Shown here: positions 24,946-30,497 of the stretch, in pieces | Numbering within the stretch: the stretch's first letter is position 1 | Layout of the letters: each line of letters starts with the position of its first letter | NCBI GenBank assembly: GCA_965247115.1 | Contig: CBDFGR010000002.1 | Coordinates: forward strand, 1,600,001-1,664,000 | DNA length: 64,000 nucleotides | Direction of reading: 5' to 3' | Origin: Myxococcota bacterium | GTDB lineage: Bacteria; Myxococcota_A; UBA9160; SZUA-336 | Translations under genes and position numbers: made by a program | The notes under the pieces: generated by a model | What the model saw: the letters and a program-made list of their open reading frames with translations, nothing else | Database searches by the model: none | What the model was told of the DNA's origin: nothing

Positions 24946-25560
24946 GTGTCGATTCTGCTGATTCGCCACGGCGAGACGGAGCTGAACGCGACACGCGTGG
25001 TCCAGCCACCGGACACACCTCTGAACGAGCGAGGCATCGCACAGGCGGACTGCCTCGCCCGCCGCCTGCTCTCGTTCGGGATCGCGCACATCCTGACCAG
25101 CGACCAGACCCGCGCGAAGATGACGGCGGAGTGTGTGCTGGCCGCGACCGGCGCGACGCTGAGCCTTGATCCGGGCCTGTGTGAGCGGAACTTTGGAGAC
25201 ATCCGCGGCACTCCGTACTCCGAGCTCAAAGAGGACATCTTCGCGCCGGGCTACATGCCTCCCGGCGGTGAGCTCTGGAGTGTCTTCGATGCTCGAGTGG
25301 ATGCCGCGTGGGATCGCGTGACCGCACGGGCGCGCCTCGTACAGGGCAACCTCGCCGTGGTCACTCACGGCCTGGTCTGTCGCTCTCTCGCCGCTCGCAA
25401 GCTCGAGCTCCCGGAGTCGGTCGCGCAGCCGCAGCGCTGGGGCAACACCGGGCTCACGATCGTGGATGGAGGACCTCCCTGGACAGTGCAACTTCTCAAC
25501 TGCACGGCCCATCTGGAGCCCGAATTCGCGGACGACATCAGGGGCACATCGGGACTCTAG
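24946..25560 (+). CDS. Histidine phosphatase family protein
   Basis: LLIRHGET, ERNFG, VVTHG. Confidence 0.88.
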   Translation: MSILLIRHGETELNATRVVQPPDTPLNERGIAQADCLARRLLSFGIAHILTSDQTRAKMTAECVLAATGATLSLDPGLCERNFGDIRGTPYSELKEDIFAPGYMPPGGELWSVFDARVDAAWDRVTARARLVQGNLAVVTHGLVCRSLAARKLELPESVAQPQRWGNTGLTIVDGGPPWTVQLLNCTAHLEPEFADDIRGTSGL

Positions 25561-25707
25561 GCTCATCCGCCTCGGAATCTGTTCGTTGGTTGTCTTCCCC
25601 CACATGGTACAGGAGCCAGGTTGGGGGCCGGTAACGGGGGTTCCGAGGCGATTTTGCGCTGCTTTTGGGCTAAATCCGCGAGTTGGATGAGATTTTCCGA
25701 TTAGTGA

Positions 25708-25736
25708 TTGACGTCCGTTGGTCAACGTGCTATAAT
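25708..25736 (+). promoter_or_regulatory. Near-consensus sigma70 promoter
   Basis: TTGACG-17 bp-TATAAT with extended -10 TGn; TTGAC-N8-GTCAA inverted repeat overlaps the -35 box. Confidence 0.7.
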
Positions 25737-25757
25737 GCTCGCGCTTATTTCGAACCA

Positions 25758-25780
25758 GCCCGCCTTTCGGCGGGTTTTTT
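25758..25780 (+). terminator. Intrinsic terminator
   Basis: GCCCGCC-TTTC-GGCGGGT followed by a T-run. Confidence 0.75.
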
Positions 25781-25836
25781 GTTGCTCCGATATTTCGCTT
25801 TTCCTCGGAACTAGGTACTTAGCGCACAGGCCAGTT

Positions 25837-26478
25837 CTACCAGCGTGCGGGTTTTGTGAGCGCGCGGCCTCCTGGTAGCACCAGTGGATCGGGGAACTGG
25901 TGCTGGAGATAGCGAGGGGACTTAAGCTTGAACGTGTGTCCCGGGATCAGCTTTTGGAGTTCTTGGTTCTGTCTTGCGAAGGGGAATGCGAAGAAGATCG
26001 ATTTCTCAGGATAGAGAGCTTGGGCAGTCCGCACGGCAGGGGCTAGATCCGTGTCGCCAGTCACCAGCACTGCGATATCACATTGGTCTGCATCGAAGAT
26101 CTCAAGAAGCCTGCAGGCGATTGCTACATCGGTTTCCTTTTCTTCGTATGCAGGTCTCTTCTGCTTGCAGACGTTGCACCACACTTCCTTGAACTTGAAC
26201 CGCCCAAGCTCGACACGCACACCCGTGGATTTGAGCGCTTCAATATATAGTTGGTGTCGCGCGGTCGAACCCGGTCGATAGTGGTCTCTGTGGTCAGCGA
26301 GCGCTGAGAAGTAGTAGATCCTCTCAAGGGTCGCAGTTCGTCCGATCACGGGGAGACACGACTCGAGCAACGATCTGAGATTCAGCCACCGCGTGGATGG
26401 ATGCTGAGGCAACCTCCGCTCGATCTCCTTGGCGGAGTGATAGACGTTGAAGCCGTCAACGAGGAAGACGGTCCGCAC
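25837..26478 (-). CDS. NYN-domain (LabA/DUF88, PIN-like) predicted ribonuclease
   Basis: FLVDGFNVYH, EEKETDVAIA, VLVTGDTDLAPA acidic catalytic motifs; CxxC insert. Confidence 0.9.
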   Translation of the reverse strand: MRTVFLVDGFNVYHSAKEIERRLPQHPSTRWLNLRSLLESCLPVIGRTATLERIYYFSALADHRDHYRPGSTARHQLYIEALKSTGVRVELGRFKFKEVWCNVCKQKRPAYEEKETDVAIACRLLEIFDADQCDIAVLVTGDTDLAPAVRTAQALYPEKSIFFAFPFARQNQELQKLIPGHTFKLKSPRYLQHQFPDPLVLPGGRALTKPARW

Positions 26479-26497
26479 GCTAGCCCCTTAAATCGAG

Positions 26498-26553
26498 AAA
26501 CCCCCCAGGCCTTAGCCTGAGGGGGACCAGCGCGCCCGTAGGCCCGGCTGGGG
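26498..26553 (-). ncRNA. Candidate structured RNA in the NYN 5' region
   Basis: Minus-strand CCCCAGCCGGGCCUACGGGCGCGCUGGUCCCCCUCAGGCUAAGGCCUGGGGGGUUU: a cUACGg-capped hairpin and a 10-bp hairpin, downstream of TTGACT and an AT-rich -10 region. Confidence 0.5.
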
Positions 26554-26609
26554 ATGATGTATATTACTTATCGTCCCAACGCTGCGGAAGTCAAGTGGGG
26601 ATTTCACCG

Positions 26610-26647
26610 AACTCTGCTAAACGGGTGATCACCCGTTTAGCAGAGTT
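26610..26647. repeat. Perfect 38-bp palindrome with no spacer
   Basis: AACTCTGCTAAACGGGTGATCACCCGTTTAGCAGAGTT is its own reverse complement. Confidence 0.95.
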
Positions 26648-26720
26648 TCCCTTATTGTTCAAGGACGGTCTACTCTTCCAATGTATTCAGTACGTTATGG
26701 TCGCAAGCTTCCGCTTATCG

Positions 26721-27725
26721 CTACTCCAAAGGGGATGATCCCGGCAGAGATCTGACTGGCTCTCGGTATCGGAGCCGCTTCCCCTCTCCCCGCTGGATCG
26801 CGCGCACGGTCCGCGCCCCATCGTCCAGCCCTCGCGTGTTGTAGCGGTATTCGAACTCGCTCACGTAGCGGTGCAAGTGCTTCTTGCTCACGCTGTGGAA
26901 GGTCCCGTACATGCCCCGCTTGATGAGCGAGAAGAAGCCCTCAATGGTGTTCGTGTGAACGTCTCCCCGGACGTACTCGCGGGCTCCGTGCTTCACCGTC
27001 TTGTGCCCGCCCATGAACTCCATTCCCACGTAGTCGTAGGACCGCTCCTCATCCGTCATGACTCGGGCGCTGCGATCCACGAATCGCCGCAGATTCCCCA
27101 TGAGGTTGTCCTTGGTGACGCGATCAATGACCTGGGTGCGAACCTCGCCCCCGCGCTCAACCACGGCAAACACGGGCGTCTTGAGCGTGGCGCGCCCGGT
27201 AATGCGCTTGCCTGGGAGGTTGCTGCGGCCCTTGTAGCGCGGCTTGCCACCGACGTAGGTCTCATCGGCTTCGACCGTGCCCGTCAGCTTCCCTCGGGGC
27301 GTCTTGGGCATGGGAGCCATTGCCCAGCGGATGCGGTGCATGAGGAACAGAGCGCTCTTGTAGCTCAGGCCAGTCTCGCGCTGGATCTGGAGCGCGCTGA
27401 CACCTTTCTTAGAGCTGCACGCGCGCCAGAAAGCGTGACACCAGATCCGAAGCGGGATCCGGGAGTCTTCGAAGATGGTCCCTATCCGTACAGTGAATTG
27501 GCGCTTACAGCCCTGGCAGCGCCACAGGAACCGCTTGTTCCGGCCCCCCTCGCGATCCTGCATCTGGTAGACGCTGGTATCACCGCAGCGGGGGCAAGCC
27601 GGGCTCTCGCCCCACCGCTGTCGCTCGACGAACTCCACGGCCGCGAGTTCGTGCCGGCATGCTTCAGGAATCTGAGCGAGCAGCCCGGAACGGGCACCTC
27701 CGACCTTGCCTTGACCCTTTGCCAT
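26721..27725 (-). CDS. IS1595-family (ISXO2-like) transposase
   Basis: Zn ribbon CPRC/CQGC, HTH (KGVSALQIQRETG), VEADETYVGG, VMTDE, HTNTIEGFF, HLHRYVSEFEYRYN. Confidence 0.93.
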   Translation of the reverse strand: MAKGQGKVGGARSGLLAQIPEACRHELAAVEFVERQRWGESPACPRCGDTSVYQMQDREGGRNKRFLWRCQGCKRQFTVRIGTIFEDSRIPLRIWCHAFWRACSSKKGVSALQIQRETGLSYKSALFLMHRIRWAMAPMPKTPRGKLTGTVEADETYVGGKPRYKGRSNLPGKRITGRATLKTPVFAVVERGGEVRTQVIDRVTKDNLMGNLRRFVDRSARVMTDEERSYDYVGMEFMGGHKTVKHGAREYVRGDVHTNTIEGFFSLIKRGMYGTFHSVSKKHLHRYVSEFEYRYNTRGLDDGARTVRAIQRGEGKRLRYREPVRSLPGSSPLE

Positions 27726-27731
27726 GTGAGT

Positions 27732-27760
27732 ATTGTAGTAAGTTCAATTGGTTGCGTCAA
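27732..27760 (-). promoter_or_regulatory. Leaderless sigma70 promoter of the IS1595 transposase
   Basis: Minus strand TTGACG-17 bp-TACAAT, 6 nt before ATG 27725. Confidence 0.65.
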
Positions 27761-27872
27761 GTAATAAGATATTCAGGGTGAGGCCACGACTTAAGAGCAT
27801 TAAGCCCGTAACACGCGAAAAACTGGCGTATTGACGCCAGGGAACCGATAATACGGCCGAGTCTTAACCGGG

Positions 27873-27959
27873 TCCCCCGGGAGGGGCTCGAACCCTCAAG
27901 ACGCGGATAGCGTCGCCCGGTTCCAGACCGGGTGCGTTTGCCAATTCCGCCACCGGGGG
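27873..27959 (-). tRNA. Atypical class-II tRNA-like gene, anticodon UGG (Pro) on a Leu-type body; CCA not encoded
   Basis: Acceptor CCCCCGG/CCGGGGG plus A73; D arm GCG-GAAUUGGCAAA-CGC; anticodon stem CCCGG/CCGGG with loop UCUGGAA; variable arm GACGC-UAUCC-GCGUC; T arm GAGGG-UUCGAGC-CCCUC. Confidence 0.85.
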
Positions 27960-28063
27960 GTGTCCTAGGCGGATCCGGGGAACGGAGAGGTGGGTGGCCA
28001 ACCTGAGCCTCTTCGCCCCCGGACCCTTGGGATCAGGGACGACTAGACGCCCCTAGCGGTATT

Positions 28064-28534
28064 TCATAGGCGAGTTTCCTCCTCGTGTTGCTCCACTATC
28101 TGAGACTGGATGAGTGGTCCTCCCTCCAGCGTCGTGATCGCTTCGTTGATGCGTGATCTGGGGAACCACCACCTACCGTCGCTTCGCTTCTGCGAGTCGT
28201 AGACCTGCCGAACAGGGATTCCGATCTGGTGGAGGCGCTTTTGGACTAAGGCCATCGCCGACCCGGTGCCCTTGGCGCTCTTCATGTGGAATCGCTCGGC
28301 CATTTCAGAAGCTGAAGTACCTCTCAGCCCAGCTTCGGAGATGAACCTCAACGTTTCCACAGCCTTGTGCATGGAGTCCCCAGACCTCGGAGCTGATCCA
28401 TTTCCTCTGGGCTTCGGAGTATCGGAGGTCGTCCTACTCTGGGTGGACTCCCCATACTTGCGAATCAGACGATCGAGGTCCGCCTCCGTCTCGCAGTGGA
28501 CGGAGAGCCCTCGGATCGTCACTCTGTATCCCAT
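28064..28534 (-). CDS. Hypothetical protein, possibly with an HTH (IS cargo)
   Basis: 156-aa ORF with G-rich RBS; TSASEMAERFHMKS segment is HTH-like; no family recognised. Confidence 0.55.
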   Translation of the reverse strand: MGYRVTIRGLSVHCETEADLDRLIRKYGESTQSRTTSDTPKPRGNGSAPRSGDSMHKAVETLRFISEAGLRGTSASEMAERFHMKSAKGTGSAMALVQKRLHQIGIPVRQVYDSQKRSDGRWWFPRSRINEAITTLEGGPLIQSQIVEQHEEETRL

Positions 28535-28655
28535 GACTCTTCCCCCCCCTGGGCATCGACGGCGCGCGTGTCGCCGACGGTCCTTAGGCTTTAGCACGAG
28601 AGTCTGATGTGGCGCAACATCTGACTAGTGATCTGATACCCCATCCGGAGGTTTT

Positions 28656-28829
28656 GTGGCGCACAGAAAGAAGAGACCAGGCCCAGACCCAGAGCGAGTG
28701 AAGATCGAAGGCGACTGGGAGGAAGCCGTGGGAGAAGCGCTGAAGAAGCCGCGACCCGAGGACGGCTGGCCCAAGCCCGAGAAGGGCCAGGACGAGAAAG
28801 AGCCCGAGGAAGACTCCTCGGACTCCTGA
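28656..28829 (+). CDS. Small 57-aa protein, not in the ORF track
   Basis: GGAGG RBS then GTG; MAHRKKRPGPDPERVKIEGDWEEAVGEALKKPRPEDGWPKPEKGQDEKEPEEDSSDS; ends about 40 bp before the right IR. Confidence 0.65.
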   Translation: MAHRKKRPGPDPERVKIEGDWEEAVGEALKKPRPEDGWPKPEKGQDEKEPEEDSSDS

Positions 28830-28910
28830 TTTTTCCGTGGCCTAGCGGTGCGGGGGATGATCCTAGCGCTTGTGCGCTAAGTCCATACTTCCGCTTTTCC
28901 TTCGTTTTGA

Positions 28911-30497
28911 TCACAGCCGCAAGTCTCGCCTGATCTCCCTGGCGGCGTTCCTGCCGCTCGCCCCCATCACGCCCCCACCCGGGTGAGTCGCGGATCCGCA
29001 GAGATACAGGGAGTCGATTGGGCTGCGATAGCGAGCCCAGCCCGGGGCCGGTCGCATGAAGAACAGCCGGTCTGGCGTCATGGCGCCGTGGAAGATGTTT
29101 CCCCCGGTCAGGCCGAAGATTCGCTCGACGTCCGGGGCGACCAGCGTCTCCTCGTGCTCTATCGAGTCGGAGAAGCCCGGCGCGACGGCTTCGATTTCTG
29201 CCACGATCCGGTCGCGCATCTGCGTGCGAACGGCTGCCCAGCCCGGGTCGTCCGACGCTCTGGCGGGCGCGTACTGGGCGAACACAGAGGCCACGTGGTG
29301 CCCGGGGGGCGCGAGCGAGTCGTCGAGCACGGAGGGAATCGTGAGCTCGACCATGGGCTGCTCGGAGACCGTGCCCGCACGCGCCTGCTCGAAGGCGCGC
29401 TCGATCCCATCGAGGTCACCCGGTCCAATGTGCACGGTTCCGGCGAGCGGCACAGGGTCGCGGTCGCGGCAACGGAAGCGCGGAAGCTCGCGCAGAGCCA
29501 GGTTCATCTTGACGACGGGGCTGCGGTAGTCGATTTGGCCCAGCGAGCGCGCGAACTCCTCTGGTAGGAGCGTCGGCTCGTCGAGCAGTGCGAAGGTTCG
29601 TTCGAGGTCCGCGCCCGAGACGATGGCATCTGCCTCGACCTCCTCCCCGTCGGAGAGCACCACGCCCACGGCCGACTGGCGTCTCGTGCGAATCCGCACC
29701 ACCTCCGCTCCGGTTCGGAGCGTAACCCCGGCGGCTCTGGCCGCGGCTGCGAGCGCGTCGGCCAGCCCTCCCATGCCACCTCGTACGTAGGCCCAGACGC
29801 CGCGCGTACCGGATACCGACCCCATCACGTGATGGAACAGGACGTAGCCCGTGCCCGGGGTCGACGGTGACGCGAATGCGCCGATCACCGCGTCGGTCGC
29901 GAGCGTGACCCGAAGCGCCTCGGCCTCGAAGTACTCCTCGAGCAGCTCCCGTGCGGGACCCAGCAGGAGTCGAGCCGCCCTTGGCAGGTCGCTGCGGAGT
30001 GCGAGGGCCGCCCTTCCTGAGAGCCACCACGCCTCGAGATCCCGAAGCCGCCGAGGTGGCCACTCGGGCGGGGGAACATCCAGGGTCGGCTCAAGGGCGG
30101 CGGCGACCCGCTCGAGCAGTGCCTCGTAGCGCGGGAACACCACGGCGTCCCGAGTCGAGAAGCGGGCGATCTCCTCCAGGTTCTGTGCCCGGTCCGCGCC
30201 CAACACAAGAGAGCGTTCCTGGGGCAGCAGCGTCAGCGAGGAAGGTCTGCGAGGCAGGAGCTTCAGCCCGAACTGGTGCAGCTTCAGCTCCCTCACGATG
30301 CGCGGTCTGAAGAGCGACAGGACGTAGGCTGCACGGGAGACCCGGTAGCCGGGCCAGATCTCCTCGGTCACGCAGGCGCCACCCATGACGTGGCGACGCT
30401 CCAGGAGCGTCACCCGCGCACCTGCACGTGCCAGGTAGGTCGCGCAGATCAGCCCGTTATGACCACCGCCCAGAACCACGATATGGCGCTGACCCAT
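28911..30497 (-). CDS. Phytoene dehydrogenase-like NAD(P)/FAD-dependent oxidoreductase
   Basis: IVVLGGGHNGL, GGACVTEE, GGMG, GGNIFHG, LYLCGSATHPGGGVMG; start trimmed to ATG 30497. Confidence 0.88.
   Translation of the reverse strand: MGQRHIVVLGGGHNGLICATYLARAGARVTLLERRHVMGGACVTEEIWPGYRVSRAAYVLSLFRPRIVRELKLHQFGLKLLPRRPSSLTLLPQERSLVLGADRAQNLEEIARFSTRDAVVFPRYEALLERVAAALEPTLDVPPPEWPPRRLRDLEAWWLSGRAALALRSDLPRAARLLLGPARELLEEYFEAEALRVTLATDAVIGAFASPSTPGTGYVLFHHVMGSVSGTRGVWAYVRGGMGGLADALAAAARAAGVTLRTGAEVVRIRTRRQSAVGVVLSDGEEVEADAIVSGADLERTFALLDEPTLLPEEFARSLGQIDYRSPVVKMNLALRELPRFRCRDRDPVPLAGTVHIGPGDLDGIERAFEQARAGTVSEQPMVELTIPSVLDDSLAPPGHHVASVFAQYAPARASDDPGWAAVRTQMRDRIVAEIEAVAPGFSDSIEHEETLVAPDVERIFGLTGGNIFHGAMTPDRLFFMRPAPGWARYRSPIDSLYLCGSATHPGGGVMGASGRNAAREIRRDLRL

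Follow-up and report, generated by a model that had tools for sequence, protein, structure and literature searches.

A 64,000-nt stretch of a Myxococcota bacterium genome (positions 1,600,001 to 1,664,000 of contig CBDFGR010000002.1, assembly GCA_965247115.1; hereafter the window) contains a class II tRNA gene that combines the body of a leucine tRNA with the proline anticodon UGG, set in a noncanonical anticodon loop. The gene is genuine and folds as a cloverleaf. It forms a repeated module with a gene for a putative NYN-domain RNase, and the module in the window lies on a small genomic island (Table 1). We interpret the tRNA as a weak reader of CCN codons that is charged with leucine, or dually charged, and that is borne on an island module, and we assign this interpretation a probability of about 0.4.

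ARAGORN predicted a single tRNA in the window, Pro(tgg), on the minus strand at 27871-27959. The Rfam tRNA model (RF00005) aligned over its full length (model positions 1-71) to the same strand at 27873-27959, with a score of 49.7 bits (gathering score, 29; E = 1.2e-07 for the whole window). Read from 27959 to 27873, the 87 nt form a class II cloverleaf with a 7/5 geometry of the acceptor and T stems. The 7-bp acceptor stem (CCCCCGG/CCGGGGG) begins with the pair C1:G72 and is followed by the discriminator A73. The D stem has 3 bp, with G13 and A22 unpaired and U8 present, while all 5 bp of the anticodon stem are G:C. The variable region of 18 nt comprises a 5-bp stem and a 5-nt loop, with U48 present, and the T arm has a 5-bp stem and the loop UUCGAGC. 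All 25 stem pairs are Watson-Crick. Among near-universal nucleotides, U8, A14, G18G19, A21, G53:C61, T54-T55-C56, and A58 are kept, and the sole departure is at U33, as the anticodon loop reads U32 C33 U34 G35 G36 A37 A38. The minimum free energy (MFE) structure of the isolated 87 nt is the cloverleaf (-43.8 kcal/mol, z = -1.88), and 10 of 200 shuffled sequences were equally stable. Across the genome, U33 is found in 49 of the 52 predicted tRNAs, and C33 in the other three, namely both copies of this tRNA and a dubious call.

The initial annotation of this DNA had described an 87-nt cloverleaf with a long variable arm, A15/U48, C1:G72, A73, and the loop U-C-UGG-A-A, oriented toward a transposase gene. 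The sequence and the cloverleaf drawing agree with that description, including C33 and A37 and, on the minus-strand reading, the spelling of the D loop; the gene, for which that annotation named no strand, lies on the minus strand and points toward the transposase. A shifted register with a canonical, Ser-GGA-like CUGGAAC loop was considered and rejected by hand, since its stem does not pair.

An assembly slip does not account for the unusual anticodon loop. The genome that contains the window (G000) has the tRNA a second time, at C3:769663-769752, with an identical anticodon loop, and both copies are reproduced by contigs of three runs from a single sample. The two copies, which we call A (window) and B, differ at 1 position within the tRNA and at 1 position in 167 nt of flanks. 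Record 3 of X1 spans 26618-28700 with 0 differences, and a 255-nt Logan contig covers 27800-28053. The three runs are probably the source of the assembly itself and so exclude an assembly slip without counting as independent evidence. In run X5, from a different study, a contig matches 27987-28054 (2 differences), and a joint in the match omits 27905-27986. This joint drops most of the 5' part of the tRNA, and the contig may come from a relative with a different tRNA body.

According to the available part of PMC9976931, bacterial tRNA-Leu is determined by A73, A15:U48, G18G19, and A20a, with no anticodon element, and bacterial tRNA-Pro by A73, G72, G15:C48, U17a, G49, G35, G36, and G37. On these lists, the tRNA has all four leucine determinants together with five of the eight proline determinants (A73, G72, G49, G35, and G36), the missing ones being G15:C48, U17a, and G37. 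It also has C2:G71, an antideterminant against seryl-tRNA synthetase in the same source. The chimeric Leu/Pro identity that had been proposed for the tRNA is therefore borne out, as far as the determinants listed there extend. Above family cutoffs, the genome encodes one leucyl-tRNA synthetase (LeuRS) and one bacterial-type prolyl-tRNA synthetase (ProRS), with no extra paralogue of either, and a domain scan of the island open reading frames (ORFs) found no synthetase domain.

Comparison with 11 Leu-type tRNAs (4 from the host and 7 from other genomes of the phylum) gave identities of 52-66%. The D arm and loop are near-identical to those of the host Leu tRNAs, with one base different, and the T arm is conserved. 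Relative to host tRNA-Leu(UAG), the acceptor pairs 1:72, 4:69, and 5:68 are flipped from G:C to C:G with both sides changed. The anticodon loop differs from every host Leu loop at no fewer than four of its seven positions, and no stem pair is broken. G35 together with C1:G72 occurs in none of the four host Leu tRNAs and in none of the five Leu-anticodon tRNAs of other genomes that were placed in one alignment. The host tRNA-Pro set consists of GGG, UGG, and CGG, all three with U33, G37, and a length of 77 nt; the tRNA departs from this type by A37, A15:U48, the lack of a 17a nucleotide, the 18-nt variable region, and C33. The last of these is not disqualifying by itself, because C33 is natural in yeast tRNA-Leu(GAG), where, in the part of PMC13492127 available to us, its change to U is reported to have minor effects. 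As a separate observation, neither ARAGORN nor a BLAST search with the gene of a relative found tRNA-Leu(UAA) in G000; the gene may sit in a gap of the assembly, which has 3 contigs and is 98% complete.

By sequence similarity, the tRNA is an orphan in the collections searched, which comprised 400 genomes of one phylum, plasmid and phage collections, and, with exact patterns, viral contigs. BLAST of the 254-nt tRNA unit against the 400 genomes returned the two G000 copies and weaker matches in 15 other genomes. Nine of the weaker loci were checked and proved to be six ordinary Leu tRNAs, two Leu-like tRNAs with odd loops, and one locus without a tRNA. A pattern that joined a Leu-type D arm to G35G36 at canonical spacing matched both G000 copies and none of the 400 other genomes. 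With 1 mismatch, which lets A35 through, it matched 364 of 401 genomes, so that its D-arm part does detect ordinary Leu tRNAs; two rows from this relaxed search (G186 and G316) were discarded as not being tRNAs, having neither an ARAGORN call nor an Rfam match. Among 72,556 plasmid and 50,697 phage records, the 254-nt unit gave one weak BLAST match each, both to an ordinary tRNA-Leu, and two 22-nt pieces of the tRNA had 0 matches each in the viral contigs. Neither our literature searches nor the 400 phylum genomes yielded a bacterial tRNA on a Leu scaffold that combines a Pro anticodon with a first pair of the Pro type. Two other Leu-bodied tRNAs came to light. One (L142, 1488-1576, from G256) carries UGC and a closing pair that is mismatched, with a serine-recombinase-like ORF about 900 nt away; in the second (L137, 1496-1582, from G161), the loop is UUAAAAA. 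Odd Leu-type tRNAs on accessory DNA are thus not unique to this genome.

We propose that the tRNA derives from an old, separately evolving tRNA-Leu lineage on mobile DNA, in which the stems would have stayed paired through compensatory changes. LeuRS is predicted to charge it, because this enzyme ignores the anticodon and all of its listed determinants are present. Recognition of G72, A73, G35, and G36 may let the one ProRS, which is of the bacterial type, charge it as well. During translation, the anticodon UGG would decode CCA and CCG. With A37 after G36, m1G37 is precluded, which would favour +1 slippage at CCN codons, and C33 is expected to lower decoding only modestly. If expressed at all, the tRNA would likely put leucine at proline codons, weakly. 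The module is eroding in its host, so any effect of the tRNA is probably small.

Several observations weigh against leucine charging and weak CCN decoding by this tRNA. A crude scan, which also misses the promoter of the NYN gene, detected no sigma-70-like promoter ahead of the tRNA in copy A or copy B. The 3' CCA is not encoded: the DNA reads A73-CC-C, and 46 of the 52 predicted tRNAs of the genome do encode it. The host must nevertheless be able to add CCA, because its bona fide tRNA-Leu(UAG) also lacks an encoded one. In copy B, one extra C enlarges the T loop to 8 nt. All of the compared Leu tRNAs have G1:C72 and never C1:G72. No homologue was found in the collections searched that could show selection on the tRNA. 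Finally, a tRNA that inserts leucine at proline codons should be harmful, which argues for very low activity or for charging with proline.

The tRNA lies outside the adjacent insertion sequence (IS). The initial annotation had placed the tRNA inside an IS1595 element and regarded it as carried by the transposon. The transposase ORF matched Pfam DDE_Tnp_IS1595 (7.5e-40) and Zn_ribbon_IS1595 (2.4e-10) and NCBIfam transpos_IS1595 (1.4e-54). BLAST of 25000-29500 against the genome showed that window segments 25827-26648 and 27794-28053 are contiguous in copy B (C3:768804-769846), and Logan contigs have this same joint without the IS, from 26633 to 27800. The segment missing from these sequences consists of the transposase ORF and short ends. 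Because copy B and the Logan contigs join the tRNA unit to the NYN unit without it, IS1595 must have inserted between the two, and the tRNA starts about 73 nt beyond its end. IS1595 is thus a later intruder into the tRNA-NYN module and not its carrier. Clean terminal inverted repeats could not be defined, only a weak alignment at the ends, and the flanks carry an imperfect 7-nt repeat (AGAGTTT/AGAGCAT), so the ends are given to within about 8 nt. The tRNA and the transposase ORF share a strand, and the tRNA lies about 150 nt upstream, as would suit a passenger mobilised by that transposase. Against this stand the IS-free joint in copy B and the Logan contigs and the four other IS1595-type transposase matches in the genome (34-55% identical), none of which has an adjoining tRNA copy. 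We also compared 128 loci of NYN homologues (48 from genomes of many phyla and 80 from metagenomes), and not one of them holds an IS1595 transposase. Together, these observations make carriage of the tRNA by IS1595 scarcely credible. The palindrome listed in Table 1 lies just upstream of the NYN promoter; IS1595 landed at its edge, and the palindrome is imperfect in copy B.

The neighbouring gene belongs to a family with a wide distribution, and no such tRNA accompanies it in the 128 loci compared. The encoded protein matched Pfam NYN (1.9e-10) and PADLOC HEC-09 (4.3e-43, over positions 3-202 of the 203 in the profile), and it keeps the invariant acidic motifs of the family alignment. HEC-09 is described as an NYN/MARF1-like putative RNase without protective effect in the phage panel used (bioRxiv 10.1101/2024.01.29.577857, as far as available). 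The gene in the window resembles HEC-09 in its full-length profile match, its single-gene organization, and its own promoter region, and differs by a conserved leader RNA, as the HEC-09/NYN passages of that preprint name no upstream RNA; the word "tRNA" is absent from its main text. The family numbers 1,791 proteins at E <= 0.001, the best of them 75-76% identical. Within the 128 loci, ARAGORN found 11 tRNAs, spread over 10 loci; most are ordinary isotypes (Ser, Met, Arg, Thr, Ala, and Gln), and none joins a class II body to a Pro anticodon. A tRNA gene lies within about 500 nt of the NYN gene in roughly 6 of the 128, which we read as defence genes in tRNA-linked hotspots and not as a functional link. 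Clustering of 1,824 neighbouring ORFs revealed no recurrent partner gene: ORFs, several of them overlapping, were common only to groups of 8 loci, which we read as one set of closely related genomes. An indirect test of recoding was also negative: in an alignment of 22 sequences, the NYN protein of the window has no Pro residue at any conserved-Leu column. Judged by these comparisons, the tRNA is not part of the conserved NYN unit.

It is possible, though unlikely, that the gene is an inert relic, a silent member of the tRNA-Leu family on mobile DNA that has lost its anticodon identity and whose G+C-rich stems look intact because the lesion is young. The lack of a recognisable promoter and of an encoded CCA speaks for this, as does the failure to find relatives, and other tRNA wrecks do occur in the genome, namely, two partial tRNA-Ser(CGA) copies. 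The module is also decaying in this host, given the insertions of IS1595 and of an element presumed to be IS256, the 32-nt deletion in the NYN gene of copy B, which is in two pieces, and the extra T-loop base in the copy B tRNA. Neutral decay would not be expected, however, to place at least four changes in a 7-nt loop and none in 25 stem pairs or the conserved tertiary nucleotides, nor to leave three fully compensated acceptor flips relative to host Leu(UAG), and a terminator follows the gene. This distribution points to change under structural constraint, and we take the tRNA to be the product of selection in some mobile lineage rather than a fresh wreck. Somewhat less probable than a relic is a true tRNA-Pro on a class II scaffold, charged by ProRS through C1:G72, A73, G35, and G36 and decoding correctly, with a C33/A37 loop that would resist an anticodon-loop nuclease, so that the gene would act as an island-borne back-up like the phage tRNAs that escape nucleases. 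In its favour, two independent Pro features, an NGG anticodon and C1:G72, are combined here in a Leu-type body, where G1:C72 and A35 are otherwise invariable. The ProRS of the host is the bacterial form, which uses G72/A73, and the neighbouring gene encodes a PIN-like NYN RNase. Published work also describes phage tRNAs whose altered anticodon loops let them evade nucleases (PMC10264068 and PMC11555353, in the parts available). Yet G15:C48, U17a, and G37 are missing, and LeuRS should compete, since all of the Leu determinants remain. The host already has canonical tRNA-Pro species with the anticodons GGG, UGG, and CGG, the long variable arm may not fit ProRS, and no such tRNA occurs in the 128 NYN loci.

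A more elaborate form of the dual-charging idea seems improbable to us: a mobile dual-identity tRNA, charged by both LeuRS and ProRS, through which a module of a defence island would achieve recoding or frameshifting at CCN codons. It could conceivably serve as a payload of dosed mistranslation or +1 slippage, or as a nuclease-proof tRNA-Pro paired with the NYN RNase. If that proved true, it would be the first case in bacteria of a tRNA with a leucine body that has evolved to decode proline codons. Still less probable is the third idea of the initial annotation, a non-decoding, tRNA-like RNA that acts as a decoy, substrate, or RNA antitoxin of the NYN RNase. The tRNA and the NYN gene were duplicated together as a module, and irregular tRNAs have been reported near toxin-antitoxin and transposon genes (PMC5389517, in the part available). 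A partnership of this kind is weakened by the 128 NYN loci, which contain no comparable tRNA (the 11 tRNAs found being mostly ordinary) and no recurrent partner gene. It is weakened further by the family's own conserved upstream RNA, present in 77 of 95 loci scanned, and by the terminator and separate promoter that lie between the tRNA and the NYN gene. Our preferred interpretation remains the Leu-charged, or dually charged, weak CCN reader.

Among known tRNAs, the closest by sequence are the bacterial leucine tRNAs, which account for all of its nearest database matches. It shares with them the long variable arm, the 3-bp D stem, A15:U48, G18G19, A20a, A73, and C2:G71, and it differs by C1:G72, by G35G36 in place of A35, by C33, by the lack of an encoded CCA, and by its low overall identity. 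In Streptomyces tRNA-ProX, a Pro body carries a non-Pro anticodon, and a dedicated ProRSx accompanies it. The tRNA described here likewise mixes Pro identity elements with a mismatched part, but the arrangement is reversed (Leu body, Pro anticodon), and the genome has no second ProRS or LeuRS. Nematodes have Leu-charged tRNAs with Gly or Ile anticodons. Candida tRNA-Ser(CAG) has G33, and this non-U nucleotide damps its decoding (work cited in PMC13492127, in its available part). These hybrids share with our tRNA a class II body, an anticodon-blind synthetase, and a foreign anticodon. In contrast, they are eukaryotic, expressed, and experimentally charged, whereas ours is known from sequence alone, and its acceptor end additionally mimics tRNA-Pro. 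The allo-tRNAs of Mukai et al. are bacterial long-arm tRNAs with an anticodon that does not match the body, found on mobile or accessory DNA; as described in the available part of PMC5389517, their acceptor/T geometry is 8/4 or 9/3 and their identity is that of serine, and some irregular tRNAs were judged there to be unused in translation. Our tRNA differs from them by its 7/5 geometry, A73, and Leu-type D loop. By analogy, it would work like other class II tRNAs with a foreign anticodon. It is a member of no named family on these comparisons, because it lacks the allo geometry, a dedicated synthetase, the anticodon and first pair of tRNA-Leu, and the class I form and G37 of tRNA-Pro.

Natural tRNAs whose body and anticodon do not match show how the meaning of a codon can shift, and they are raw material for genetic-code engineering. 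If the tRNA is charged and used, it would represent Pro-to-Leu mistranslation from mobile DNA or a Leu-to-Pro identity switch caught midway. If it is inert, it would be a clean example of tRNA genes that ride and decay in defence islands.

Table 1. Features of the tRNA-NYN region (window coordinates unless a contig, C2 or C3, is given)
Feature	Position	Strand	Basis or remark
Class II tRNA gene	27873..27959	minus	ARAGORN, Rfam, cloverleaf drawing, MFE fold, census of CCA and U33
Terminator-like hairpin with T-run	27823..27840	minus	32 nt after the tRNA; same site in copy B
Upstream part of tRNA unit, 94 nt, with G+C-rich hairpin; module right end at 28053	27960..28053	minus	BLAST boundary common with copy B
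IS1595-family insertion sequence, ~1.15 kb	26649..27799 (approx.)	minus	Absent from copy B and the Logan joint
IS1595 transposase ORF, 334 aa	26721..27725	minus	Pfam and NCBIfam
Perfect 19+19-nt palindrome, no loop	26610..26647		Repeat search
Two-hairpin leader RNA motif	26496..26557	minus	Covariance model R1, 62 bits, only match in the window
NYN-domain RNase gene, 213 aa, PADLOC HEC-09 family, intact in copy A	25837..26478	minus	Pfam, PADLOC
Repeated tRNA + NYN module, ~1.1 kb without the IS (copy A)	25805..28053	minus	BLAST against own genome
Module copy B	C3:768804-769846		Full copy
Module copy C, truncated	C2:767512-767833		Last 97 NYN codons and left end only
177-aa ORF, no family match, single copy in genome	28064..28597	minus	Ends 10 nt upstream of the module, copy A only
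Island, 3,125 nt	25786..28910		Absent from same-genus genome G002

The conserved RNA upstream of the NYN gene may be a more useful lead than the tRNA itself. It lies directly upstream of the HEC-09/NYN genes, between the promoter, which is conserved as well, and the start of the gene, and is about 60 nt long; a 5' UCAUCCCC precedes the variable, covarying hairpin P1, which is followed by P2, a G+C-rich hairpin whose loop is of the UNCG type, and a U-run. In an alignment of 50 instances, 14 of 16 pairs showed compensatory changes. The 77 loci matched by model R1 all carry the motif on the strand of the gene, and 50 of the matched sequences are the model's own seed. One locus, L028, has the motif three times in tandem. 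The family is absent from Rfam 15. The layout of structured RNA, terminator, and nuclease gene recalls type III toxin-antitoxin loci or an attenuator, which we treat as a lead only. The leader occurs across many phyla and may explain the control of the candidate defence gene HEC-09. Within the module, the terminator-like hairpin separates the tRNA from the NYN gene downstream.

The genome contains two full copies of the module and one truncated copy. The left ends agree to within 2 nt in three places and the right ends coincide in two, with flanks that differ each time. At the ends (25805 and 28053), neither inverted repeats nor a target duplication was found; mobility as an integron cassette or in the manner of IS200/IS605 was considered from the sequence, and no motif supported it. 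A search of 40 relatives found neither the NYN protein nor the tRNA unit. In the same-genus genome G002, about 30 nt replace the island, between the amine-oxidase gene and the thyA side. The G+C content of the island is 0.54-0.62, versus about 0.66-0.70 in the flanks.

Two identical 434-aa ORFs lie at G000:C3:767497-768803 and C2:773916-775319; they resemble an IS256-type transposase. The first abuts the left end of copy B, and the 29 nt missing from that end adjoin the second, on C2, with an 8-nt overlap, which suggests either an IS-mediated rearrangement or an assembly join. An ORF at G000:C2:766650-767078 adjoins copy C and resembles, by eye, a HicB-type antitoxin; it is about 5 kb from a tRNA-Sec gene, in surroundings rich in accessory genes. 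Two extra tRNA-Ser(cga) calls (G000:C3:688608-688692 and C3:2401143-2401229) have scrambled 5' halves, whereas their 3' halves are identical to the canonical gene (C3:2329734); both resemble remnants of the attachment sites of integrated elements. Beside the island, 25708-25776 contains a strong plus-strand promoter-like site (11 of 12 matches, with TG), followed 20 nt further on by a terminator-like hairpin. This segment is kept in G002 and may represent a very short transcript or the point where the adjacent operon ends.

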